A stretch of DNA of 52,362 nucleotides from a virus (taxonomy: Duplodnaviria; Caudoviricetes), in the IMG/VR virus record IMGVR_UViG_3300028027_000073, positions 1 through 52,362 of that record. The stretch is one strand, 5' to 3'. Positions within the stretch are counted from its first letter, which is position 1, and each line of letters opens with the position of its first letter. Positions 5,335-47,027 of this stretch are shown piece after piece. Position numbers and translations under genes: made by a program. The notes under the pieces were generated by a model. It saw nothing but the letters and a program-made list of their open reading frames with translations. It made no database searches and was not told where the DNA came from.

Positions 5335-6072
5335 TTATATGCTGATAACTGATTCTTTTGTAACTTGTTCTGATTTCACTGATCTGCTCCATTTACCACA
5401 TCCTTGACATTGGAATCGTTGATAGTGTCGTGATAAATTAACTGCTGAACCACGCTTTTGTAATTTGCTAGAACCGCAATTTGGACATACTGTATTTGCG
5501 GAATACGCATTGTGGTTAGGATGATTTTTAATCCATGCTTTAAACTTGTCATAAACTTTTTCAAGTAGTACTACATCGTTTTTATTGTACTCTTCCATAG
5601 TCTTCCAAGCTTTACGATCATCGTTCATACACTTAACCCACAATGTATGACCTTCATGTTCTGTTTTAGAACCTAAACCTAAAGCCTGTGATACATAATC
5701 TAGTTTGTTAGAAACAAACCTAAATTGTCTACGAGCTACTTGTAATAAATCTATCTGTTTGGCAGGTGCTGGAGGCGGCATACCTGCTAATAAGAATTCT
5801 TTGTGTAGTATGGGTATGTCAAACCTAGAACCGTTGTAATGGACTATAGCATCAGCTTCATCAAGAAGTTTATGCACAGAGTCTAGCATCTTTTGTTTGC
5901 CAGATTTTTGAATAGAATCAAACATGATTTTAGATTCACCGTACCACTTGGCTGCATAGCAAAGGGTATAAGATGATTCTAATAATTGATTTATAGAGAT
6001 GTTCTGGTCAAAGATACCCCAGACATGAGCAGTATTTGGTGCTACTTCTATATCAATAAGTAAAATTTTCAT
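5335..6072 (-). CDS. RNase H-like (DnaQ/YprB-type) exonuclease with C-terminal Zn ribbon
   Basis: LIDIE, HYNGSRFD, NKLDYV, YNKNDV; CPNC...CQGC. Confidence 0.85.
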   Translation of the reverse strand: MKILLIDIEVAPNTAHVWGIFDQNISINQLLESSYTLCYAAKWYGESKIMFDSIQKSGKQKMLDSVHKLLDEADAIVHYNGSRFDIPILHKEFLLAGMPPPAPAKQIDLLQVARRQFRFVSNKLDYVSQALGLGSKTEHEGHTLWVKCMNDDRKAWKTMEEYNKNDVVLLEKVYDKFKAWIKNHPNHNAYSANTVCPNCGSSKLQKRGSAVNLSRHYQRFQCQGCGKWSRSVKSEQVTKESVISI

Positions 6073-6099
6073 AATAACCTTTAGTTATAAGTTTACTTA

Positions 6100-6549
6100 T
6101 TATATACCAAGAAATAGTCTGCGTTCATCCAATCTTCTGTTTTGTAAGCCTTTTAGGACTTTACCACCAGCTCTACAATATTTAACTAGCGATTCCATAG
6201 CCGTTTCTTTATCGCCACGAAGCAACGCTTGACGGATGGTTGAACGCTGAAAGCATCCAAGACCCAGATTAAAGCAAAAGCTGACAAGAGCGTCAAACTC
6301 ATGTTGTCGTAAAGGCACGTTAGGTAACATCTTATGTACTCCCAACTCAAAACGGTTGAGGTCTCGTTTAAGAATTGCATCTATTTCCTCGTTAGTAAAT
6401 GTTTTGTTCCATTCAGGCGGTAATGTTTTTCCATCACCAATCAAATGACCAATTCCCACTGTCCATAGTTTTGCGGGACACTGGTATGGTTTGTTTCTAA
6501 CACCTTCATGATGTCGGATTAACTTAATTGCCTCTTTAGATACTTTCAC
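6100..6549 (-). CDS. Endolysin, GH24 phage lysozyme
   Basis: HEGVR..PYQC..WTVGIGH, FDALVSFCFNLG, GLQNRR; GTG start assumed. Confidence 0.92.
   Translation of the reverse strand: MKVSKEAIKLIRHHEGVRNKPYQCPAKLWTVGIGHLIGDGKTLPPEWNKTFTNEEIDAILKRDLNRFELGVHKMLPNVPLRQHEFDALVSFCFNLGLGCFQRSTIRQALLRGDKETAMESLVKYCRAGGKVLKGLQNRRLDERRLFLGI
6186..6380 (-). CDS. Candidate overprinted membrane protein nested in the lysozyme gene (64 aa)
   Basis: GAGGA RBS 5 nt before ATG; TM segment plus basic tail; intact in both arms. Confidence 0.45.
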   Translation of the reverse strand: MQFLNETSTVLSWEYIRCYLTCLYDNMSLTLLSAFALIWVLDAFSVQPSVKRCFVAIKKRLWNR

Positions 6550-7033
6550 GTTTCTTTTCCCAAGTGCGAGAACCAAAGTAAAAGCCAATAATACTTGCAG
6601 TAATAGCCATTTCTTCAGAGCCAAATACTTCTTGTGAAGCTACAACAAAGTCAACACCTGACCACATAGCCCATACCAAAGAAATAAGGTTGATAAGCAC
6701 TAACTCCCCTACAAAGATGAAAGCGACTACAGGTCTAACCATAGCGTTCCAGTTCTTAACTGTAGGGCTTGCATTTTCTACTAGCTTCTTATCGTGGTCG
6801 TATAATGCTTCACGTTCTTGTGCGTATGTTTGAACTTCTATTTGGTCTAGCTTAATAGCTTCTATCTTTTCTTGTGATATAAAGCCTGCTTTAGCTAATT
6901 CTAATTCACGTTCTGTTTGTAGTTTAGCCATTTCTCTTTCATGCTTTTGGTCACCTTTTTGCTGAAAGAAACCTAAAACACTGGGTAAGCCTGAAGTAGC
7001 AAAACCTAATATACCTGATAAAATACTTAACAT
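6536..7033 (-). CDS. Holin (3TM/GTA-holin-like)
   Basis: VRP..., hydrophobic segments, IIGFYFGSR C-terminus; overlaps the lysozyme gene. Confidence 0.75.
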   Translation of the reverse strand: MLSILSGILGFATSGLPSVLGFFQQKGDQKHEREMAKLQTERELELAKAGFISQEKIEAIKLDQIEVQTYAQEREALYDHDKKLVENASPTVKNWNAMVRPVVAFIFVGELVLINLISLVWAMWSGVDFVVASQEVFGSEEMAITASIIGFYFGSRTWEKKRESI

Positions 7034-7393
7034 CTATAACTCCTTTGGATCAAAGCCATACATTTTGGCTACACGTTTTTGTAATTTAAGAAACAAGCCT
7101 TTATGACTTGTGTACTGCTCTGTTTTTGGTGAAACTGTATATACACACATATGCAATATTTCATGGCAAAGTGTAATTAACACAGGGTATAAGTGAGAAT
7201 GTCTTGCAGTAGATATAGTAATAACATGTGGCTCACCTTGTTCTGGTGGTTGATATTCTCCACATATAGCATTGTCATTTACGATAACAAAGTCTACTTT
7301 AGATGCTGGTGGTAATTTGTATTCATCAAATATAGGCATCTCTATAATTGCACTATAGAGGTTAGCTATATTATTTTCTGTAATGAATGTCAT
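7034..7393 (-). CDS. Small zincin-like (SprT-like) metallopeptidase
   Basis: TLCHEILH plus downstream H...F. Confidence 0.65.
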   Translation of the reverse strand: MTFITENNIANLYSAIIEMPIFDEYKLPPASKVDFVIVNDNAICGEYQPPEQGEPHVITISTARHSHLYPVLITLCHEILHMCVYTVSPKTEQYTSHKGLFLKLQKRVAKMYGFDPKEL

Positions 7394-7797
7394 TTTGATA
7401 ATGGGTTCATTGTGCTACGTTTAACAGTATTTAGTTTATCATCCATTGCGTTTACGGTTGCTTCTAATTCTTTACGCAGACCTGATACCATAGCTGAAGT
7501 CTCACGAGAGTTGGCAATAGCGTCTGAAGACTTTTCACTAGCTTTCATAATAGATTCAGATAGTTGGTATTGTCTTTCATTTATTGCTTTAACTTGTATT
7601 TCTAAACCATTTAATTTAGACTCTATGGGAGCTAAATCTAAACTGTCAACAGCTTCAATTGCCGTAACCATCTTGTTGTAAAAAGTTATGCCTGCGTATG
7701 CCGAGCCAGCTACTATTGGCAATGCTATTAAAATCAATTTCAGAAGTGCCGAGCTGGATAAGCTCAAGCTGAAGGTTTTGATTTTTTCCGAACTCAT
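7390..7797 (-). CDS. Membrane-anchored coiled-coil protein
   Basis: N-terminal TM, heptad-rich C-terminus; 134/135 identical to 45092..45499. Confidence 0.8.
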   Translation of the reverse strand: MSSEKIKTFSLSLSSSALLKLILIALPIVAGSAYAGITFYNKMVTAIEAVDSLDLAPIESKLNGLEIQVKAINERQYQLSESIMKASEKSSDAIANSRETSAMVSGLRKELEATVNAMDDKLNTVKRSTMNPLSK

Positions 7798-8728
7798 TGT
7801 TTATCTCCGTATCAAATTTAAATGCGTCTGTTATTTCTATTTGTTGTATAATAGGTTTGTTAAGTATTTCTAATGAAAGGACTATTCCAAAACCATGTAC
7901 AAGCTCTTTACCCTTTGGTACGTCAAGTTTAGGACTCTCCTTGCTCTCATTCTTTTGTTCAGTCTTTGGTGGGTCTTTTGGGCTGTCTTCTTTTGCTTTT
8001 GGCTCACTTTTAGTTTCTTGTTTTGGTTGTTCAACCTTAACAGGAGCTGACTCTACTTTAGGTGGTTCAGGTGCAGCTAATGGGTTTACTTCTGGAGCAA
8101 CAGCAGGTGGTGGTGCAGGAGGTGGATTATTTACAGGGTTAAGGGGTGAGCTAGGGCTAACTGGAGAACTCACGTTAGTGACGTTTGTAGCACTCTTAAC
8201 ACATGTATTGTTTGTTTCTACCCAACCATTCCATACAGGACTTCCATAAGGGTCTGGGCAAGATGAAATGTTAGTTTCTGTAATAGAACCTACATAGTCT
8301 GCTTGACAGGCTAGTTGCCTAGTTTCAACACTTGCCTGACACGTTGGAGGGTCTTGTGTGCAGTTGTTGCTAGTTTCTGTCCAAGCTGACCAGCTTTGCG
8401 TAGAACAACTAAAATTCCTGCTTTGATTAACAGCACCGCTATAGTGAGGTAACGTACAAGCTGTGGTTTGATTTTCAACCAAGTCTGAACAAGCAGGTGT
8501 TTGATACGCACCGCATATTGGGTCACTTGGGTTATAAGATACGCACCAATAGTCTTTAATTGCAATGATTGGATCAATGCCATGACATACGAGAGAACCT
8601 TGAAGCATATAGCCTTCAGGCGTTGGAGTATAGTTGCAATACCAAGCATAAGCATTATTTACCTTTGTTAATGATAGAAGTAGTAATAGGCTCGTCAGCA
8701 ACAAGCGGTATCGTGTATGTATCGCCAT
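7655..8728 (-). CDS. Secreted Cys-rich protein with Pro/Lys/Glu-rich linker
   Basis: Signal peptide (RYRLLLTSLLLLLSL..AYA); Cys conserved in arm B; W-x-x-W-x-E-T-x-N-x-C repeats. Confidence 0.8.
   Translation of the reverse strand: MAIHTRYRLLLTSLLLLLSLTKVNNAYAWYCNYTPTPEGYMLQGSLVCHGIDPIIAIKDYWCVSYNPSDPICGAYQTPACSDLVENQTTACTLPHYSGAVNQSRNFSCSTQSWSAWTETSNNCTQDPPTCQASVETRQLACQADYVGSITETNISSCPDPYGSPVWNGWVETNNTCVKSATNVTNVSSPVSPSSPLNPVNNPPPAPPPAVAPEVNPLAAPEPPKVESAPVKVEQPKQETKSEPKAKEDSPKDPPKTEQKNESKESPKLDVPKGKELVHGFGIVLSLEILNKPIIQQIEITDAFKFDTEINNEFGKNQNLQLELIQLGTSEIDFNSIANSSWLGIRRHNFLQQDGYGN
8311..8655 (-). CDS. Candidate overprinted cationic amphipathic protein (114 aa)
   Basis: TAATG coupling to the upstream stop; same length in both arms; no Asp/Glu. 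Confidence 0.5.
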   Translation of the reverse strand: MLMLGIATILQRLKAICFKVLSYVMALIQSLQLKTIGAYLITQVTQYAVRIKHLLVQTWLKIKPQLVRYLTIAVLLIKAGILVVLRKAGQLGQKLATTAHKTLQRVRQVLKLGN

Positions 8729-9161
8729 ATAGTTTCTTGAATATAGAAGGGTTACGTTCATACCAACCACGTTTAGCAGCATCACCAATAGAACCATTTA
8801 TAGGACATGGTGAGCCTGACTGTATCATGGCTTCAAATACTCTATCGTCTTGACACAAGATAGATACTGCTGCAACTTTAAGACCTAAATCATTAAGAGT
8901 TTTAGCCAGTTTAATGCGTTCACAATTAACGTCTTTATAGCCAGAGCCACCACTTAAGCCAAACAATGTACTAGATACAGAACCAGTAACAGGAACAATA
9001 CAAACGTCTTGGCTAAAAGCACTTATAGAAGGGCTAATGGCACTAGGTGGTGGTTGACCTTTATAGTTAATAGTAGTAGTATCAGCGTGTGCAGTATGAA
9101 CCATAAATAAAACAAGTAAAACAATAATTGTCCAACTAAATATTTTAGAAAATGTTTTCAT
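8655..9161 (-). CDS. Secreted protein with four Cys
   Basis: Signal peptide ending AHA; mature part nearly identical in arm B despite a different signal peptide. Confidence 0.85.
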   Translation of the reverse strand: MKTFSKIFSWTIIVLLVLFMVHTAHADTTTINYKGQPPPSAISPSISAFSQDVCIVPVTGSVSSTLFGLSGGSGYKDVNCERIKLAKTLNDLGLKVAAVSILCQDDRVFEAMIQSGSPCPINGSIGDAAKRGWYERNPSIFKKLYGDTYTIPLVADEPITTSIINKGK

Positions 9162-9162
9162 G

Positions 9163-9321
9163 TTACATAAATTTATGAGTTAATAGAAATACAATCACAA
9201 AACCTGCTGTTCCTAATAGTATTTGTTCTAAACGTTTGAGTCTTGCATTTATTTGTTCATAGCGTAAAGCACATACTTCTTCGTGTGTACTCAATCTTGA
9301 TTCTACGTCTGACTTCACCAT
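9163..9321 (-). CDS. Small coiled-coil plus TM protein (52 aa)
   Basis: Hand-translated MVKSDVESRLSTHEEVCALRYEQINARLKRLEQILLGTAGFVIVFLLTHKFM; homolog at 46869. Confidence 0.8.
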   Translation of the reverse strand: MVKSDVESRLSTHEEVCALRYEQINARLKRLEQILLGTAGFVIVFLLTHKFM

Positions 9322-9322
9322 C

Positions 9323-9385
9323 TTATCCTTTCGGAGCATTATATAAGTTTATAGGGGGTAGGTATAAATCGTGCCATTCAATCAT
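9323..9385 (-). CDS. Possible 20-aa peptide MIEWHDLYLPPINLYNAPKG
   Basis: ATGA overlap with the upstream stop; fills the intergenic gap; absent in arm B. Confidence 0.35.
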   Translation of the reverse strand: MIEWHDLYLPPINLYNAPKG

Positions 9386-11001
9386 TGTTGATTTTGATAC
9401 ATTTTATCTAATTGTTGTAAGTATAAATCTGGCTCTAATAAACTTTGAGCCTCTTGTACTTTCTTAAGCTGTACACCTGCTTTAGCTGTTAAGTCAATAG
9501 GTGTTCCATATCTAGCTACTTTGCCACCAGCTTGAGTTAGCAATCCAGTAATTTTAGGCGATGTAATACCAATACCAAGTGCTGTTAATGGGCTTAATCC
9601 AGTACCAAATGCAATATTAAGTAACCCACCAGCACCACCCAAAGTACCAAGAACACTTTTTGGTTCAAAAGATTTCATAGATGCACCAGCAATTTCTGTA
9701 GATAAATCAATGCCAGTAGCCTTTTGCATTTTATCAGCAAGTGATAATTTAACACCAGTTTCATCACGAGTTGTTCTTAATAATTTTCTTAATGCTGTTT
9801 CTTGAGATGCTTTATTTCCACCAATAAGACCTCTGTCAATCTCTCTAATAGTTTCAATAGAGTTTTCGTAATCTGCCATTGCTTTTTTGTACTCTGGCAC
9901 TTCTTTAACAAGGTAGTTTTTTACACCATTACGAGTGGTGTCTATAACTCTTTGTGCTTGAGTCATCTTTACATCGTCTGGATACACAGCATCTATTCTT
10001 TGTTTTAAAAAGTCTAAACCAGCTGCTGTATGTAATTTAGGTTGAGATTCCCATGTATTAAGAATTTTCTCTACTTCATTAATTGCTGCTAATTCTTTAT
10101 CACCAACACTTACTTGACCTTTGTAAGTAATAGATTTTTTAGCATTATCAAAAGTTTCTCTAATTGGAGCAAAGTCTAATTTAGCTGGACTTGCAGCCCA
10201 TCCAGTATCTGTACCTTTAAATTGGCTTGATTTTTTAGCTGTTGAATATTGCAAATTTTTCTGTGCAATCATTTCTTGTAAACCAGCTTTTGCTTTATTT
10301 AATATTTCTATTGATTCTGTTTTTCCTACAATTTGATTAATTGCAGTATCAATACCAGCTTTAGAAGCTTCATATACTTTTTTAATAGCTTCACCACCAA
10401 CACCAGTTGTTAATCCTAGTATTGGAGGAAGACCAGCTTCTAGCACTTTACCGCTCATATATAATGGATTTGTTACTTTAGATAACTCTGAAAATCCTAC
10501 AGCAGGTGTAGTTACTTGCCTCTCTGTAAATGGAACTTTGCCTGTAACAGATGGAATTTTGTATGGCACAGCTTTAGATGCAATACCAGCACCTGTAGAT
10601 ATATCAAGCAATGCCTCTACTGGTCTTTCTTGAGCATATTGTTTAAATGATTCTGCACTTTGGTACGGTGCTGCAAATGCTCTAAACATTTCTTCTTGTC
10701 TAGATACTGGCATTTTTTCCAATACTTTTTCTGGAGAATACATTTGACCTAAACTTTTTCTTGCTGCTGCTTGTGCACCTCCAGCAAGAGTTTCACCAGC
10801 TGCATAACCAACTTGTGGTGCGTTAGTGATTACATTGTAGCCACCACGCAATATATCCAATAAGTTTTGAGGCACATTTGCACCAGCTTGTAAAAAAGAA
10901 AAGTTTGTTGGAACATCGGCTACAGCACCTGCTTTTAATGGACCAGATGTAGTAATGTCTGGAACTTTATTTTGCGTTAATTTATATAAATCTTCAGCCA
11001 T
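9382..11001 (-). CDS. Putative DNA ejection/internal virion protein
   Basis: Last gene of the ejection cluster; Ala/Gly-rich helical protein with glycine-zipper segments. Confidence 0.65.
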   Translation of the reverse strand: MAEDLYKLTQNKVPDITTSGPLKAGAVADVPTNFSFLQAGANVPQNLLDILRGGYNVITNAPQVGYAAGETLAGGAQAAARKSLGQMYSPEKVLEKMPVSRQEEMFRAFAAPYQSAESFKQYAQERPVEALLDISTGAGIASKAVPYKIPSVTGKVPFTERQVTTPAVGFSELSKVTNPLYMSGKVLEAGLPPILGLTTGVGGEAIKKVYEASKAGIDTAINQIVGKTESIEILNKAKAGLQEMIAQKNLQYSTAKKSSQFKGTDTGWAASPAKLDFAPIRETFDNAKKSITYKGQVSVGDKELAAINEVEKILNTWESQPKLHTAAGLDFLKQRIDAVYPDDVKMTQAQRVIDTTRNGVKNYLVKEVPEYKKAMADYENSIETIREIDRGLIGGNKASQETALRKLLRTTRDETGVKLSLADKMQKATGIDLSTEIAGASMKSFEPKSVLGTLGGAGGLLNIAFGTGLSPLTALGIGITSPKITGLLTQAGGKVARYGTPIDLTAKAGVQLKKVQEAQSLLEPDLYLQQLDKMYQNQQ

Positions 11002-11009
11002 GTTTTATC

Positions 11010-12536
11010 CTAGAAATAATATAATTCGTTATTCATAATGTAATACTGTGCATTTGGATCTAATCCAGACGCTTTGGCTGGGAAACGTTTTTTAATATAT
11101 GGGTTTGCACCAGAATATACTTTAATTTCACCTTTGTCTGTTTTTACTTTTGTTTCTAATGGTAAAAATTCTGATTTTGGAAACTCAAAGTCATTACCAT
11201 AATCATTTGCATATCCTTGATTAAGGTTAGCTTTTGCAGCTTGAATAGTTTGTAATAACTCAACAACTACTCTTTTACCTTCTTCTGGAGGAAGACCTAA
11301 CTTAATTTTATTTAAAGAAGCAATAATTCTATCGCCTTCTTTTTCTGATAAATTTCCTGTTCCAGCTGCACCAGAAGGTGAAAGTGCTTTTAGTTTTTTT
11401 AATTCACTTACTAAAGACGCACCTTCTGTACTTGTAATAAGGTTATTTAATTTAAATGCAGAAGTTCCTTCTATACCAGCACGCTTACTTGCTAAAGGAC
11501 CAAAAGCATTATCAAAATCTTTATCTGTAATAATATCGTATACTGTTTTTTCAAAATTATTTAAACTTGTAAATGAATCTGTTAATCTTTTTTGAATTTC
11601 ACTTTGATTATCTTTTAACTGCTGTCTTGTAACTGCAGAAACATCTTGTCTATTTACAAATGGAATGGTAGATGTTGTTTTTGCAGCAGGAGTAGGATTT
11701 GCAGATACATTTGTTTGCGGAACTTTTGTTGTATTAACTGCAGCAGGTTGAGTTTGTTGCGTAACCTGTGGTTGCGTTACTGGTGCAACATTAGTTTGTG
11801 TAGCGGTAGTAACTTGTGGCTGAACAACAGGTTGATTTGCTTGACTCATTCTGTTTGCTCTATCTAGTTTAATTTGAGCAATAATTTTATCTGCAGATGG
11901 CAATTCATCAAGTGGAGCACTTGGTAATTTGGCTTTAAATTCAGCTCTAGGAACTGCTTGTTTTGACTTTTCTATAGAAGAAACAGCAATAGCGTCTTTT
12001 GCAATACGCACATCAGCCATATCTTGTGCAGATGGGCTTTGAGGATTAATACCAAGTTCTTGCATAATTGAAAGATCTTGTTTATCAATCTCTGGAAGAG
12101 GTCTAAATCTTTCTTGTGTTTTTTGTAGTCTTTCTAATGTGCCTTTTGGATCAATAAAAAAAGCATTTGCTAATTCTGGGTTATTTCTAATAGCGTCTGC
12201 TAAACCAGCTTCTGTTCTTTCAAAACCTTTTAATTCAAACTGACCCTTTTTAATATTTTGCATAAGGTTAGTTAATTCAGTAGTAGTCATAAGGTTTCTA
12301 GTAGCTGCATCTATAGGAGCTTGTCTTCCTCCAACAGCACCAGTAAATCCACCTAATGCAGCACCAGCAACACCTTTATTCCAATTAGAAGCAATACCAG
12401 TAGCTAAACCAAGACCAGTGCCAATAAGTTGTTGCGTCTTAAGTCTTTCCTGTTCTTCTGGAGATAAAAGACCTGCAACAGGGCTTTGTCTTGTAAGAAA
12501 TAATGTATCTAATAAACCTTGAAAATTATCTGCCAT
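11010..12536 (-). CDS. Putative DNA ejection protein (P22 gp20-like position)
   Basis: N-terminal glycine zipper; LKALSPSGAAGTGNLSEKEG motif. Confidence 0.65.
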   Translation of the reverse strand: MADNFQGLLDTLFLTRQSPVAGLLSPEEQERLKTQQLIGTGLGLATGIASNWNKGVAGAALGGFTGAVGGRQAPIDAATRNLMTTTELTNLMQNIKKGQFELKGFERTEAGLADAIRNNPELANAFFIDPKGTLERLQKTQERFRPLPEIDKQDLSIMQELGINPQSPSAQDMADVRIAKDAIAVSSIEKSKQAVPRAEFKAKLPSAPLDELPSADKIIAQIKLDRANRMSQANQPVVQPQVTTATQTNVAPVTQPQVTQQTQPAAVNTTKVPQTNVSANPTPAAKTTSTIPFVNRQDVSAVTRQQLKDNQSEIQKRLTDSFTSLNNFEKTVYDIITDKDFDNAFGPLASKRAGIEGTSAFKLNNLITSTEGASLVSELKKLKALSPSGAAGTGNLSEKEGDRIIASLNKIKLGLPPEEGKRVVVELLQTIQAAKANLNQGYANDYGNDFEFPKSEFLPLETKVKTDKGEIKVYSGANPYIKKRFPAKASGLDPNAQYYIMNNELYYF

Positions 12537-12538
12537 GA

Positions 12539-13276
12539 TTATCCTATCCTTTTAACTTGTAAAAGATTGCCAGCCATTGGACCAGATTGACCTTTTCTAA
12601 TTTGTTGGTTGCCCATTGCTACAGCTTCTTGTAATCTTTGTTTATCTGCTTGTTCATTTTTTTGTCTTATATCTAAAAGACTTTGACCACCACTTAATAC
12701 AGTCATTGGATTTTGTTGGGCATATGACATAGTATTAGAACCTAGATCAGAAAGTCTTTCTCCAAATGTTAATGGTGTATCTACAGCTATACGTCTAGGG
12801 TCTAATGTTAATGGGTTTGGTGTAGAAGAAAATGAAAATGGAATACCAGTAGCAGGTGCACCAGATGCAGCAAATCCCAATCCATCATCAGCGACATTAA
12901 GATATGGGCTAATGTTTATTCCTTGACCTGCACCACCAATTACATTTGTAGGAAGTGAAGTATTAAATGCTATATCATCTAAAGAATTTAATGCTAAATC
13001 GTCTACAGTATTTGCAACAGTAGGAGCTAACTGAACACCAGTTCCAGTAGCAGAAGGTAACGCACTTTTGAAACCTGAAAATAAATTACCACCAGCACCA
13101 CCTGCACCACCTAAAATACCGCCAGTAGCAGCACCTAGCAATGCACCTTTAATAGGGTTTCCACCCATTACACCAGAACCTACAGCTCCGATAGCTGCTG
13201 GAACTAAAATTTCTGGACCAAGAGAAGGTTGTAAAAAGTTCTTAATAATCCATACAGGATTAAAATACTTAAACAT
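12539..13276 (-). CDS. Gly/Ala-rich putative ejection protein
   Basis: Glycine-zipper N-terminus, homologous to 49568..50275. Confidence 0.65.
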   Translation of the reverse strand: MFKYFNPVWIIKNFLQPSLGPEILVPAAIGAVGSGVMGGNPIKGALLGAATGGILGGAGGAGGNLFSGFKSALPSATGTGVQLAPTVANTVDDLALNSLDDIAFNTSLPTNVIGGAGQGINISPYLNVADDGLGFAASGAPATGIPFSFSSTPNPLTLDPRRIAVDTPLTFGERLSDLGSNTMSYAQQNPMTVLSGGQSLLDIRQKNEQADKQRLQEAVAMGNQQIRKGQSGPMAGNLLQVKRIG

Positions 13277-38715: not shown

Positions 38716-38811
38716 ATGAAAATTTCAACAATGATAGCAGTAGCAGTACTATTTTGGGTTTATGTAGCTTCATGCCTTTGGGTTATGGGCAAATTAGCGG
38801 GAGCAATATAA
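38716..38811 (+). CDS. Small early membrane peptide (31 aa)
   Basis: MKISTMIAVAVLFWVYVASCLWVMGKLAGAI; AGGAG RBS; TAATG coupling. Confidence 0.65.
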   Translation: MKISTMIAVAVLFWVYVASCLWVMGKLAGAI

Positions 38812-43068: not shown

Positions 43069-43773
43069 CTAAGAAACATGACCATTCCAACGCCCATTTT
43101 CTTTTAATACCATAGGCATTAGCTTTGGTTGACCGTTAATAATAACTCCACAACCTACAATGAAACGACTCTTAAAGTTTTTAGCATAGTCAAATGCCAT
43201 AGACTTTTGATGTATTAAACATCCTACTTGCATACCCCAAATAAGAGCATCTGGGTTACTGTAATAACCAATACTGAATTTAGTATGATAGTGACCCTGC
43301 ACCGTATTCATTCCATACTGCTGGGCTACCTTTAAAACGTCAGCAGATAAACCATGAGTAAAGAAACATCTAGAGTTATCACTTAAGGTTATGGTGTGGT
43401 CATCTACCCATTCCCAGCCTTTGCCAACGCCTAAGAACTCATTGTAATGCTTTAGATATGCTTTAGGCATACCATACTTTAATGCTCTACGATAAACTAA
43501 AGAGCTATGGTTAGAATGAACTAAAACCATCTTAGGGAATATCTTTTCTAGTTCTTTGACATGCTTCTTAGACTCTTCTAATTCATGTCCAGCAGAGTAT
43601 AAGTCTGGGTTATGTTCGTGCATAGAGATAGCGTGTTGGTCTAGCTCATCACCTATGTTGACTATATGGTCAAACTTGTATTTAGTCTTTAATGCTTTGA
43701 GAAACGCAAATGCGTCAGGATGATGATATGGAATATGTAGGTCAGATATGACTAGAACTGATTTATATTTCAA
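43069..43773 (-). CDS. Calcineurin-like metallophosphoesterase
   Basis: SDLH.P, GDE.D, SNH, THG, GHYH motifs. Confidence 0.9.
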   Translation of the reverse strand: MKYKSVLVISDLHIPYHHPDAFAFLKALKTKYKFDHIVNIGDELDQHAISMHEHNPDLYSAGHELEESKKHVKELEKIFPKMVLVHSNHSSLVYRRALKYGMPKAYLKHYNEFLGVGKGWEWVDDHTITLSDNSRCFFTHGLSADVLKVAQQYGMNTVQGHYHTKFSIGYYSNPDALIWGMQVGCLIHQKSMAFDYAKNFKSRFIVGCGVIINGQPKLMPMVLKENGRWNGHVS

Positions 43774-43801: not shown

Positions 43802-44251
43802 TTATAACCCTAAAAACAATTTGCGTTCATCTAATCTTCTGTTTTGTAAACCTTTTAATATCTTACCACCAGCTTTACAATATTTAACTAACGACTCCAT
43901 AGCCGCTTCTTTATCGCCACGTAACAACGCTTGACGGATGGTTGAACGCTGAAAGCATCCAAGACCCAGATTAAAGCAAAAGCTGACAAGAGCGTCAAAC
44001 TCATGTTGTCGTAAAGGCACGTTAGGTAACATCTTATGTACTCCCAACTCAAAACGGTTGAGGTCTCGTTTAAGAATTGCATCTATTTCCTCGTTAGTAA
44101 ATGTTTTGTTCCATTCAGGCGGTAATGTTTTGCCATCACCAATCAAATGACCAATTCCTACTGTCCACAGTTTTGCGGGACACTGGTATGGTTTGTTTCT
44201 AACACCTTCGTGATGACGTAGTAACTTGATAAGTTTATCAGATACTTTCAC
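43802..44251 (-). CDS. Endolysin, GH24 lysozyme
   Basis: Homolog of 6100..6549. Confidence 0.92.
   Translation of the reverse strand: MKVSDKLIKLLRHHEGVRNKPYQCPAKLWTVGIGHLIGDGKTLPPEWNKTFTNEEIDAILKRDLNRFELGVHKMLPNVPLRQHEFDALVSFCFNLGLGCFQRSTIRQALLRGDKEAAMESLVKYCKAGGKILKGLQNRRLDERKLFLGL
43888..44082 (-). CDS. Candidate overprinted membrane protein nested in the lysozyme gene
   Basis: 62/64 identical to 6186..6380; same RBS and stop. Confidence 0.45.
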   Translation of the reverse strand: MQFLNETSTVLSWEYIRCYLTCLYDNMSLTLLSAFALIWVLDAFSVQPSVKRCYVAIKKRLWSR

Positions 44252-44735
44252 GTTTCTTTTCCCATGTACGAGAGCCGAAATAGAAACCAATAATAGATGC
44301 AGTAATAGCCATTTCATCTGAACCAAATACTGCCTCTGAAGCTGTTACAAAATCTACACCTGTCCACATAGCCCAACCTAATGAGATAAGATTAATAAGC
44401 ACTAACTCACCTACAAAGATAAATGCTACTACAGGTCTAACCATAGCGTTCCAGTTTTTAACTGTAGAACTTGCATTTTCTACTAACTTCTTATCATGGT
44501 CGTATAATGCTTCACGTTCTTGTGCGTATGTTTGCACTTCTATTTGGTCTAGCTTAATAGCTTCTATTTTTTCTTGTGATATAAAACCTGCTTTAGCTAA
44601 TTCTAATTCACGTTCTGTTTGTAGTTTAGCCATTTCTCTTTCATGCTTTTGGTCACCCTTTTGCTGAAAGAAACCTAAAATACTAGGTAAACCTGAGGTA
44701 GCAAAACCTAATATGCCTGATAAAATACTTAACAT
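44238..44735 (-). CDS. Holin (3TM-like)
   Basis: Homolog of 6536..7033. Confidence 0.75.
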   Translation of the reverse strand: MLSILSGILGFATSGLPSILGFFQQKGDQKHEREMAKLQTERELELAKAGFISQEKIEAIKLDQIEVQTYAQEREALYDHDKKLVENASSTVKNWNAMVRPVVAFIFVGELVLINLISLGWAMWTGVDFVTASEAVFGSDEMAITASIIGFYFGSRTWEKKRESI

Positions 44736-45095
44736 CTATAACTCCTTTGGGTCAAAGCCATACATTTTGGCTACACGTTTTTGTAATTTAAGAAACAAGC
44801 CTTTATGACTCGTGTACTGTTCTGTTTTTGGTGAAACTGTATATACACACATATGCAATATTTCATGACAGAGTGTAATTAACACAGGATATAAGTGAGA
44901 GTGTCTTGCAGTAGATATAGTAATGACATGTGGTTCACCTTGTTCTGGTGGTTGATATTCTCCACATATAGTATCGTCATGCAATACTATGAAGTCTACT
45001 TTAGATGCAGGTGGTAGTTTGTATTCATCAAATATAGGCATCTCTATAATTGCACTATAGAGGTTAGCTATGTTATTTTCTGTAATGAATGTCAT
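44736..45095 (-). CDS. Small zincin-like metallopeptidase
   Basis: HEILH; homolog of 7034..7393. Confidence 0.65.
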   Translation of the reverse strand: MTFITENNIANLYSAIIEMPIFDEYKLPPASKVDFIVLHDDTICGEYQPPEQGEPHVITISTARHSHLYPVLITLCHEILHMCVYTVSPKTEQYTSHKGLFLKLQKRVAKMYGFDPKEL

Positions 45096-45499
45096 TTTGA
45101 TAATGGGTTCATTGTGCTACGTTTAACAGTATTTAGTTTATCATCCATTGCATTTACGGTTGCTTCTAATTCTTTACGTAGTCCTGATACCATAGCAGAA
45201 GTCTCACGTGAGTTGGCAATAGCGTCTGAAGACTTTTCACTAGCTTTCATTATAGACTCTGATAGCTGATATTGTCTTTCATTAATAGCTTTAACTTGTA
45301 TCTCTAAACCATTTAACTTAGACTCTATAGGAGCTAAGTCTAAACTGTCAACAGCTTCAATTGCCGTAACCATCTTGTTGTAAAAAGTTATGCCTGCGTA
45401 TGCCGAGCCAGCCACTATTGGCAATGCTATTAAAATCAACTTCAGAAGTGCCGAGCTGGATAAGCTCAAGTTGAAGGTTTTGATTTTTTCCGAACTCAT
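45092..45499 (-). CDS. Membrane-anchored coiled-coil protein
   Basis: Homolog of 7390..7797. Confidence 0.8.
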   Translation of the reverse strand: MSSEKIKTFNLSLSSSALLKLILIALPIVAGSAYAGITFYNKMVTAIEAVDSLDLAPIESKLNGLEIQVKAINERQYQLSESIMKASEKSSDAIANSRETSAMVSGLRKELEATVNAMDDKLNTVKRSTMNPLSK

Positions 45500-46427
45500 T
45501 GTTTATCTCCGTATCAAATTTGAAAGCATCTGTTAATTCAATTTGCTGTATAATAGGTTTGTTAAGTATTTCTAGTGAAAGAACTATTCCAAAACCATGT
45601 ACAAGCTCCTTACCTTTTGGCACGTCAAGTTTAGGACTATCCTTGCTATCATTCTTTTGTTCAGCCTTTGGTGGGTCTTTTGGGCTGTCTTCTTTTGCTT
45701 TTGGCTCGCTTTTAGCTTCCTGTTTTGGCTGTTCAACCTTAATGGGAGGAGGGCTAGATAAAACAGGCTCACCAGGGCTATTTGTAGGTAGCCCAGCAGG
45801 AGGTGGTGGAGCTGCAACAGGTGGTGGGTTATTTACAGGGTTAAGGGGTGAGCTAGGGCTAACTGGAGAACTCACGTTGGTGACGTTTGTAGCACTCTTA
45901 ACACATGTATTATTTGTTTCTACCCATGCTCCCCATACATCATTACCATAAGGGTCAGGACAAGATGAATTTCTAGTTTCTGTAACTGAACCTACATAGT
46001 CTGCTTGACAGGCTAATTGTCTAGTTTCAGTACTTGCTTGACACGTTGGAGGGTCTTGCGTGCAATTGTTGCTAGTTTCTGTCCAAGGTGACCAAGAGTT
46101 TGAAGAACAACTATAAGTCCTGCTTTGATTAATAGCACCGCTATAATGAGGTAACGTACAAGCTGTGGTTTGATTTTCAACCAAAGGAGAACAAGTAGGT
46201 GCTTGATACGCACCGCAAATTGGGTCACTTGGGTTATAAGATACGCACCAATAGTCTTTAAGTGCAATTTGTGGGTCAATGCCATTACATACGAGAGAAT
46301 CTGGAAGCATATAGCCTTCAGGCGTTGGAGTATAGTTGCAATACCAAGCATAAGCATTATTTCCTTGTAGGGATAGAAGTAGTAATAGGCTCGTCAAGAA
46401 CAAGCGGTATCGTGTATGTATCGCCAT
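45357..46427 (-). CDS. Secreted Cys-rich protein
   Basis: Homolog of 7655..8728. Confidence 0.8.
   Translation of the reverse strand: MAIHTRYRLFLTSLLLLLSLQGNNAYAWYCNYTPTPEGYMLPDSLVCNGIDPQIALKDYWCVSYNPSDPICGAYQAPTCSPLVENQTTACTLPHYSGAINQSRTYSCSSNSWSPWTETSNNCTQDPPTCQASTETRQLACQADYVGSVTETRNSSCPDPYGNDVWGAWVETNNTCVKSATNVTNVSSPVSPSSPLNPVNNPPPVAAPPPPAGLPTNSPGEPVLSSPPPIKVEQPKQEAKSEPKAKEDSPKDPPKAEQKNDSKDSPKLDVPKGKELVHGFGIVLSLEILNKPIIQQIELTDAFKFDTEINNEFGKNQNLQLELIQLGTSEVDFNSIANSGWLGIRRHNFLQQDGYGN
46013..46357 (-). CDS. Candidate overprinted cationic amphipathic protein (114 aa)
   Basis: Homolog of 8311..8655; TAATG coupling with AAGGA upstream. Confidence 0.5.
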   Translation of the reverse strand: MLMLGIATILQRLKAICFQILSYVMALTHKLHLKTIGAYLITQVTQFAVRIKHLLVLLWLKIKPQLVRYLIIAVLLIKAGLIVVLQTLGHLGQKLATIARKTLQRVKQVLKLDN

Positions 46428-46869
46428 ATAGTTTCTTAAATATAGAAGGGTTACGTTCATACCAGCCACGTTTAGCAGCATCACCTATAGAACCGTTTAT
46501 AGGGCATGGTGAACCTGACTGTATCATGGCTTCAAATACTCTATCATCTTGACAAAGGATAGATACTGCTGCAACTTTAAGACCTAAGTCATTAAGAGTT
46601 TTAGCTAATTTAATACGTTCACAATTAACGTCTTTATAGCCAGAGCCACCACTTACGCCAAACAATGTACTAGATACAGAACCAGTAACAGGAACAATAC
46701 AAACGTCTTGGCTAAAAGCACTTATAGAAGGGCTAATGGCACTTGGTGGTGGTTGACCTTTGTAGTTGATAGTAGTTGTATCTGCTGCTCTAGCATCCAT
46801 AGATAATGCTAATAACATACCTATTGACATACCTACGAGTAATGCTATTAAGTTTCTTAATGCTTGCAT
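46357..46869 (-). CDS. Secreted protein with four Cys
   Basis: Homolog of 8655..9161. Confidence 0.85.
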   Translation of the reverse strand: MQALRNLIALLVGMSIGMLLALSMDARAADTTTINYKGQPPPSAISPSISAFSQDVCIVPVTGSVSSTLFGVSGGSGYKDVNCERIKLAKTLNDLGLKVAAVSILCQDDRVFEAMIQSGSPCPINGSIGDAAKRGWYERNPSIFKKLYGDTYTIPLVLDEPITTSIPTRK

Positions 46870-47027
46870 TATTTCATTCCATTGGTTAGTAGATAAACAA
46901 TAACGAAACCTGCTGTGCCTAATAAGATTTGTTCTAGGCGTTTAAGTCTTGCGTTTATTTGCTCATAACGTAACGCACATACTTCTTCATGCGTACTTAA
47001 ACGTGCTTCTACGTCTGTCTTGACCAT
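46869..47027 (-). CDS. Small coiled-coil plus TM protein (52 aa)
   Basis: Homolog of 9163..9321. Confidence 0.8.
   Translation of the reverse strand: MVKTDVEARLSTHEEVCALRYEQINARLKRLEQILLGTAGFVIVYLLTNGMK

Follow-up and report, generated by a model that had tools for sequence, protein, structure and literature searches.

The described systems that come closest to the locus reported here are the two-component spanins (lambda Rz/Rz1, T7 gp18.5/18.7 and P2 LysB/LysC), the XhlA-type partners (PBSX XhlA and SPP1 gp24.1; PF10779), the disruptin of phage phiKT (gp28), and the T4 holin T with its antiholin RI. XhlA is a family of lysis-cassette proteins in Bacillus phages, and T4 RI binds to the periplasmic domain of holin T. 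How spanin-less phages open the outer membrane is an open question. Such phages are put at ca. 15% in the abstract of a preprint (bioRxiv 10.1101/515445), and two further articles mention spanins only in passing (PMC9004378 and PMC9238414). Here, we analysed a block of genes, designated gA to gE, on the minus strand of a freshwater phage genome (Duplodnaviria; Caudoviricetes). The sequence under study, hereafter the window, is the complete IMG/VR virus record IMGVR_UViG_3300028027_000073 (52,362 bases, rated 100% complete). Four of the genes, gA to gD, constitute a conserved unit that probably belongs to the lysis cassette, and a part in breaching the outer envelope layers at lysis is the role that we tentatively favour for them.

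The module shares with the two-component spanins a probable place in the lysis cassette and a protein, gD, whose predicted N-terminal anchor and periplasmic coiled coil correspond to the layout of an inner-membrane spanin (i-spanin). The gD gene overlaps that of its partner in another frame (143 nt), the module includes Cys-bearing exported partners and a Pro-rich periplasmic segment, and in 12/47 distant relatives gD is followed by the gene for a small lipoprotein. Unlike the spanins, the module of the window has neither a lipoprotein nor a match to the Rz/Rz1 families; the overlapping partner, gC, lies upstream, comprises 357 amino acids (aa) and carries a predicted cleavable signal peptide instead of a lipobox; two additional conserved proteins, gA and gB, are present; and the module coexists with true Rz/Rz1 in some relatives (7/47). 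The gA protein resembles the XhlA-type partners in that it is short, with an N-terminal helix, a C-terminal membrane segment and a probable location in the lysis cassette. It differs from them in that its relatives score under the family cut-off, gA of the window gives no match, and the hosts here are presumably Gram-negative. Disruptin addresses the same question, namely the breach of the outer membrane without spanins; however, it is a single cationic peptide, whereas four proteins are encoded here, with predicted membrane anchors, a coiled coil and disulfide-bearing domains, and no peptide of the cationic amphipathic kind was noticed among them. The likeness to T4 holin T and RI concerns the layout only and consists in the single-pass form with a predicted disulfide-bearing periplasmic domain that is seen in gA-gB fusions, accompanied by a secreted partner in the periplasm.

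No paper on this module was found in full-text searching, supplementary files being outside the scope of the search. The original prediction had considered the block a candidate for an undescribed system, and in agreement with this, gA-gD match no named family, and the PHROG families of gB and of the accessory genes of its relatives have no assigned function. New in the present study are the link of gA to the module and the gA-gB fusions, the N-P/R-L tail of gD, the overlap-driven mis-annotation of gC and gD, the lipoprotein gene behind gD, and the coexistence with true spanins.

Gene order and conservation of the block

Relatives were fetched via gB with three queries (gB of the window, a gA-gB fusion form and a 149-aa form; 80 loci each), and 18 loci repeating an already included contig were removed. 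The first two queries gave a close set of 141 distinct loci, of which 83 had at least 3.5 kb downstream of gB, and the third gave a distant set of 67 new distinct loci, of which 47 had enough flank. All 83 close relatives read gB-gC-gD-(gE)-holin-endolysin, and the order gB-gC-gD was likewise found in 47/47 distant relatives. The co-occurrence of these genes, which bears directly on the module posited in the original prediction, thus extends to every relative with sufficient flank. The lysis genes of 72 close relatives were of the same holin and lysozyme types as those of the window, while the other 11 of the 83 carried a GTA_holin_3TM holin (E 7.8e-22) and a Peptidase_M15_3 enzyme (E 1.1e-15), the linkage being kept even where the enzyme type is exchanged. 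When judged against our own reference set of enzymes, a recognised endolysin, including the GH19 type, lay downstream in 41/47 distant relatives, and a holin or holin-like gene adjoined the module in most of them. Upstream of gB, a separate gA-like gene was present in 91 of 125 loci and a long gB open reading frame (ORF), which may be a fusion, in 21; the genes 5' of the module vary among relatives, being ejection proteins in some and tail fibres in others.

The block is also present twice in the window itself, in two diverged arms. The second copy (44736..47027, minus strand) shows 89% DNA identity to the first, and the identities of the encoded proteins between the arms are 92% (gA), 93% (gB), 84% (gC), 99% (gD) and 95% (gE), whereas the upstream neighbours (539 aa vs 473 aa) are not alignable between the arms (BLASTP E 0.099). 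The signal-peptide sequences of gB are unrelated between the arms, while the mature parts match. Both the contrast between the conserved block and the barely alignable ejection genes and the complete replacement of one signal peptide had been pointed out in the original prediction, and both were borne out here.

Among 54 distinct close relatives, codon-position diversity showed a third-position excess in every gene (0.067/0.053/0.22 for mature gB). In the gB/gC overlap, the diversity was level over the three positions (0.12/0.12/0.13), and in the gC/gD overlap the third-position diversity of gD fell from 0.30 to 0.20. Since third-position diversity is flattened in the overlaps, both frames appear to be constrained there, gD more so than the tail of gC. 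The export and anchor features of gA-gD persist while the sequences diverge or are replaced. The recurrence of the gene order in both sets, together with this coding constraint, argues that the block is not a product of chance. These sequence comparisons support the view that the gA-gD block is conserved and mobile as a unit, and its linkage to lysis genes points to gA-gD as a probable part of the lysis cassette.

The gA and gB genes

gA (9163..9321, read from 9321 to 9163) encodes 52 aa when counted from a conserved MVK start that is kept in arm 2 and in relatives; the longest ORF begins at 9339. The protein has a helical N-terminal part, a conserved His and a conserved Cys, and a hydrophobic C-terminal segment, and it is predicted to be tail-anchored, with the helix in the cytoplasm and the C-terminal segment in the membrane. 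A 70-aa relative with 43% identity links it to the longer forms. gA of the window had no Pfam match, XhlA included, at E <= 0.1. Two of 11 aligned gA-like proteins matched Pfam XhlA (PF10779; E 3.6e-7, 30.7 bits, under the cut-off of 34.7 bits), and two of the 11 matched DUF7201. In-frame gA-gB fusions were found as two clusters, P0066 (205 member sequences) and P0115 (20); in these, the membrane segment of gA takes the place of the gB signal peptide and ends in A-H-A/D.

gB (8655..9161; 168 aa) has a signal-peptide-like N-terminus and four Cys residues. A Gly-rich hydrophobic loop lies between Cys54 and Cys80, followed by a helical C-terminal half with Cys103 and Cys119. In an alignment of 32 members, 29 columns were invariant, four of them Cys. 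The family is large, with 3,702 of the 90%-identity clusters related to gB at E <= 0.001, and its members retain 55-65% identity across very different phages. It has no Pfam domain. In the Protein Atlas gB is virus-only, the nearest clusters being 98-100% viral and unnamed. Matches in bacterial genomes were confined to six contigs, all from metagenome bins, and no host inference was drawn from them. A 126-157-nt stretch inside gB (8772-8928) is 71-78% identical at the DNA level to four marine Pelagibacter phage genomes, which have no other detectable DNA similarity to the query region 6000-12600; this shows the strong conservation of that part of gB. The AF2 model of gB (mean pLDDT 61.7) was too poor for structure searching, and the gB profile had no match to PDB chain sequences at E <= 1. 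The complex prediction for mature gB with the periplasmic part of gD returned a score of 0.00 with the verdict 'no answer', which counts neither way.

The gC and gD genes

gC (7655..8728; 357 aa) is predicted to comprise a signal peptide, a Cys-rich domain and a Pro-rich linker. Its Cys-rich beta domain (residues ~30-183) contains 11 invariant Cys and one nearly invariant Cys, as well as two W-x-x-W-x-E-T-x-N-x-C repeats (residues 113-123 and 166-176). After the domain come an S-P-V-S-P-rich hinge and a variable linker rich in Pro and Lys; the C-terminal segment is again conserved and includes a hydrophobic GFG-V-S-L stretch as well as a W..RR..LQ tail. The A-Y-A/W-Y-C sequence of gC is not a lipobox. 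AF2 modelled most 10-residue blocks of the N-terminal domain with a mean pLDDT of 88-95 and the remainder of the protein below 50; in the modelled domain, a short helical part leads into two units of three strands each. A Foldseek search of this model against PDB gave nothing at E <= 0.001. The wide VIA search gave no solved fold match (Z <= 6.3); low-confidence C-terminal helices filled its results, and the N-terminal domain was therefore barely probed by it. BFVD contained one unnamed homologue (E 5e-11, 38% identity). A thrombospondin-repeat-like fold was considered for the W-x-x-W repeats and set aside, as Pfam gives no such match. The database labels 'transport protein tonB', 'homoserine kinase' and 'MerR regulator' on relatives were judged spurious, the first of them probably being due to the Pro-rich linker.

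gD (7390..7797; 135 aa) has a hydrophobic segment at approximately residues 17-40 in a Kyte-Doolittle scan, and the remainder is helical and heptad/hendecad-like, with weak Pfam matches only, of coiled-coil type. Its predicted topology is that of a type-II membrane protein with an N-terminal anchor and a periplasmic coiled coil, and this layout is conserved across 15 aligned relatives. The protein ends in K-R-x-T-x-N-P-L, and an N-P/R-L ending was found in 183/186 relatives. Among relatives, the length of gD varies by blocks of 11 or 22 residues in the helical region, a pattern suggestive of a coiled coil built from hendecads, with its length adjusted by complete repeats. A gD profile searched against 1.84 billion representatives (50%-identity clusters) gave 68 matches only; gD therefore diverges much faster than gB, and too fast for HMMER to recover the marine forms. 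In the Protein Atlas, the best named matches to gD scored 0.78-0.80, which is the noise level.

The overlaps between the genes are 74 nt (gB/gC), 143 nt (gC/gD) and 4 nt (gD/gE), the first two being those given in the original prediction, and the gC/gD overlap measures 116-164 nt in 124/126 relatives. Most database versions of gC are 302-327 aa long with 87-89% query coverage, as expected if they begin at Met42, after the signal peptide, and those of gD often begin at Met43 and lack the anchor. The signal peptide of gC and the anchor of gD are lost in public gene calls apparently because gene callers limit same-strand overlaps, and this mis-annotation helps to explain why the module has gone unnoticed.

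Occurrence in cultured phages

tblastn searches with gB identified six Pelagibacter phages (with podo-, sipho- and myovirus genomes), Roseobacter phage CRP-207 and two uncultured records. The five cultured phages inspected all carry a triad consisting of gB, a larger protein, and then a short membrane-anchored helical protein that ends in N-P-L. gD is related to the last gene of the pelagiphage triads (hhalign 93.7%, E 1.9e-7). A signal peptide is evident in the larger protein in 3/5 triads. Homology between gC and this middle protein was considered and rejected (hhalign 0.13%); the two are positional analogues only, with a shared layout. In HTVC033P, the N-terminal domain of the middle protein is annotated as carbohydrate-binding and has no detectable homology to the N-terminal domain of gC; the triad adjoins an amidase gene, a holin-like gene and a gA-like gene. 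The Mosig triad adjoins a GTA_holin_3TM gene and a gene for a DUF7201 tail-anchored protein, and that of CRP-207 adjoins a protein with two transmembrane segments (gp72), of a class that precedes the holin in other relatives. Baldr has a 62-aa ORF between gB and the large protein.

Spanin and lipoprotein searches

A lipobox scan over every start codon in the six frames of the window gave no candidate near the lysis genes. Searches of the entire record with PF03245, phrog_1327 and phrog_13 gave nothing at E <= 0.1, gA-gE matched none of the spanin families of Pfam or PHROGs, and the window contained no ORF with the N-terminal lipobox and C-terminal transmembrane segment of a unimolecular spanin. 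The earlier statement that no lipobox-bearing spanin is evident therefore holds in the window. The sole lipobox ORF in the window (38716..38811, plus strand; 31 aa) lies in the early-gene region between the arms and may be spurious. Lipobox matches in 7/134 close relatives came from 40-42-aa ORFs and were judged spurious, since these ORFs lie within the holin or lysozyme genes in a different frame.

In 12/47 distant relatives, a Cys-rich lipoprotein gene (59-75 aa) starts at the gD stop codon or within ~30 nt of it. These lipoproteins (L187:7928-8152, L165:7769-7948 and 10 more loci) have six Cys and the motif C-x-D/E-R-Y/F-R-Y-P-C-Q-N/D-P..., and the family has no Pfam or PHROG match. A lipoprotein gene directly 3' of gD has the layout of a 'separated' spanin pair.

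The gE, holin and lysozyme genes

The original prediction had described a five-gene module, followed by a holin and a lysozyme gene. All seven genes lie in a row on the minus strand, and gA-gD hold together as a conserved unit; the fifth gene, which encodes the HExxH protein gE (7034..7393; 119 aa; HEILH), falls outside it. gE has no export signal and was present in 65 of the 83 close relatives (absent from 18) and in none of the 47 distant ones; for these reasons, the conserved set is four genes rather than five. gE scored 13.9 bits against Pfam SprT-like (PF10263; cut-off, 25.6), and its positional homologue at the relative locus L092 exceeded the cut-off (27.7 bits). Thus, gE appears to be a SprT-like cytoplasmic protein whose gene is optionally inserted between gD and the holin gene.

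The next gene (6536..7033) encodes a holin-like membrane protein of 165 aa that matches phrog_6637 in PHROGs and has no Pfam match. It aligns over its full length with Mosig_00203 in BLASTP (29% identity, E 5e-23), and Mosig_00203 in turn matches Pfam GTA_holin_3TM (PF11351) with 25.8 bits against a cut-off of 24.8. The lysozyme/endolysin gene (6100..6624) matches Pfam Phage_lysozyme (E 6.2e-36) and phrog_7 (E 2.1e-49). Translation from the TTG at 6624 would add a hydrophobic extension of 25 residues, which runs through the end of the holin gene (6536-6624). Lysozyme relatives mostly start with M-K-V-S, and here such a start is provided by a GTG at 6549 that follows GGGAAAAG. The true start is thus likely to be GTG 6549 rather than TTG 6624, and because this start is available, the lysozyme is probably cytoplasmic and not signal-anchored.

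Organisation of the record

The window is longer than one copy of a ~37.7-kb podovirus genome and contains the lysis region twice. Because eleven direct-repeat families are spaced 37.0-38.9 kb apart (identity 70-97%), it is read as two diverged copies of one ~37.7-kb phage, head to tail. Either a chimeric assembly that combines two strains or a concatemer could account for the duplicated arms. In the second arm, the genes are located at 46869..47027 (gA), 46357..46869 (gB), 45357..46427 (gC), 45092..45499 (gD) and 44736..45095 (gE), and downstream of gE follow the holin (44238..44735) and lysozyme (43802..44326) genes, all on the minus strand.

PHROGs names on the minus strand include portal, major head protein, virion and tail-fibre proteins, and an ejection protein. 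The block comes after these and sits at the end of the late gene block; downstream of it are the lysozyme gene and then a DNA-polymerase exonuclease subunit. The arms differ 3' of the lysozyme gene: arm 1 has the exonuclease subunit (5335-6072; phrog_403), and arm 2 has an unrelated 234-aa ORF (43069-43773). The same alternative recurs among relatives. A promoter and terminator scan found nothing above chance (19 promoter-like signals vs 29.3 expected).

Discussion

Our preferred reading, which we hold tentatively, is that gA-gD form an inner-membrane-anchored periplasmic complex that helps to breach the outer envelope layers at lysis. The block would be a late-expressed accessory lysis module that acts once the holin and the endolysin have acted. 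Like an i-spanin, gD would be anchored in the inner membrane and extend its coiled coil into the periplasm, and gB and gC would be exported by Sec and oxidised to disulfide-bonded domains; the disulfide-bonded complex of the original prediction was not supported beyond the conserved Cys residues. The Pro-rich linker of gC may cross the periplasm, so that the lineage-specific binding domain at the gC N-terminus comes to lie on the outer side. The N-P/R-L tail of gD would dock on a conserved partner, for which the highly conserved gB is the best candidate. Two stretches are candidates for the membrane-active element, namely the Gly-rich, hydrophobic loop in gB and the GFG-V-S-L segment in gC. 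gA, as an XhlA-like tail-anchored peptide, would work with the holin. Such a complex would detach or breach the outer envelope and so do a spanin-like job without a lipoprotein. In favour of this reading are the linkage to lysis genes, the i-spanin layout of gD with its maintained gC/gD overlap, the spanin-free window, the lipoprotein gene behind gD in 12/47 distant relatives, the sub-threshold XhlA matches of gA relatives, and the export signals that survive replacement of their sequences.

Several observations weigh against this reading. Seven of the 47 distant relatives carry, in addition to the module, a canonical embedded Rz/Rz1 pair beside a GH19 endolysin (i-spanin phrog_1327, E 7.7e-13; embedded Pro-rich lipoprotein phrog_3198, E 1.6e-4). 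Since a full pair coexists with it, the module is not simply a spanin substitute, and the suggestion in the original prediction that it may replace spanins, which accords with the spanin-free window, is weakened by these relatives, since canonical spanins, a finding it had itself named as refuting, occur in them though not in the window. No outer-membrane anchor is evident in the window's module. Spanins are usually far less conserved than gB, whose level of identity would suit an enzyme or a protein that binds some conserved component of the host. The triad of HTVC202P lies just before terL, ~20 kb from the M15 peptidase gene, and that of Baldr also lies just before terL. gC and the pelagiphage middle protein are alike in layout and share no detectable homology (hhalign 0.13%), and the relatives were taken as the top tblastn matches of three queries rather than drawn at random from phages.

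The coexistence with Rz/Rz1 implies that the module must add something beyond spanins, and this would suit a control of lysis timing, in which the module is a periplasmic sensor or antiholin-type regulator acting on the adjoining holin, as T4 RI does on holin T. We regard such a role as unlikely. It accords with the holin or holin-like neighbour in all 83 close relatives, most distant relatives and two inspected cultured phages, and with the resemblance of gA relatives to XhlA-type holin partners. The gA-gB fusions, with a single membrane segment between a predicted cytoplasmic N-terminus and a periplasmic domain predicted to bear disulfides, likewise recall the layout of holin T; however, their A-H-A/D ending is a signal-peptidase-like site, so that cleavage is possible. 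Moreover, four proteins, including a 357-aa gC with a large binding domain and a long linker, exceed the known needs of an antiholin, and gA-gD show no sequence similarity to holin or antiholin families in Pfam and PHROGs. A lineage-specific N-terminal domain of gC (Cys-rich here, annotated as carbohydrate-binding in HTVC033P) would suit variable host structures, which raises the alternative that the exported proteins occupy a host envelope component and block further or progeny injection, that is, superinfection exclusion or receptor masking. The hypervariable ejection genes that adjoin the block in the window fit this idea, and gB, being small, conserved, disulfide-bearing and periplasmic by prediction, loosely recalls T4 Spackle. 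Nevertheless, it is the lysis genes that are the constant neighbours, while the upstream ejection genes vary; the block stands at the end of the late block, and promoter-like signals of its own do not rise above chance (19 vs 29.3 expected), whereas known exclusion genes are usually early or lysogenic. We therefore consider exclusion to be less probable still than timing control.

Since the module lies at the end of the structural block beside ejection genes and genes with virion-protein matches, gA-gD could also be ordinary virion or assembly proteins that sit by chance between the ejection and lysis genes. This is highly improbable: the signal peptides and anchors keep their function while the sequence is replaced, no structural family is matched, and the module travels with lysis genes across podo-, sipho- and myovirus genomes. 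Nor was there evidence for the surface adhesin suggested in the original prediction, as no route across the outer membrane is encoded.

Under the preferred reading of gA-gD as a complex that helps to breach the outer envelope, the block and the triads of the pelagiphages and the roseophage may together represent a third, undescribed class of Gram-negative last-step lysis machinery, although we regard this wider proposal as rather doubtful. Such machinery would be multi-protein, non-lipoprotein and trans-periplasmic, with an inner-membrane-anchored gD presenting its N-P-L tail to gB and a swappable gC holding a host-specific component of the outer layers.

The module occupies the spanin slot in a very large group of aquatic phages, and the presence of gB in cultured Pelagibacter and Roseobacter phages makes it testable at the bench. 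If gA-gD do represent a class of lysis machinery, it would be one that is used by some of the most abundant aquatic phages. Should the module instead regulate lysis or exclude other phages, ecologically dominant phages would even so possess a new and widespread envelope function.

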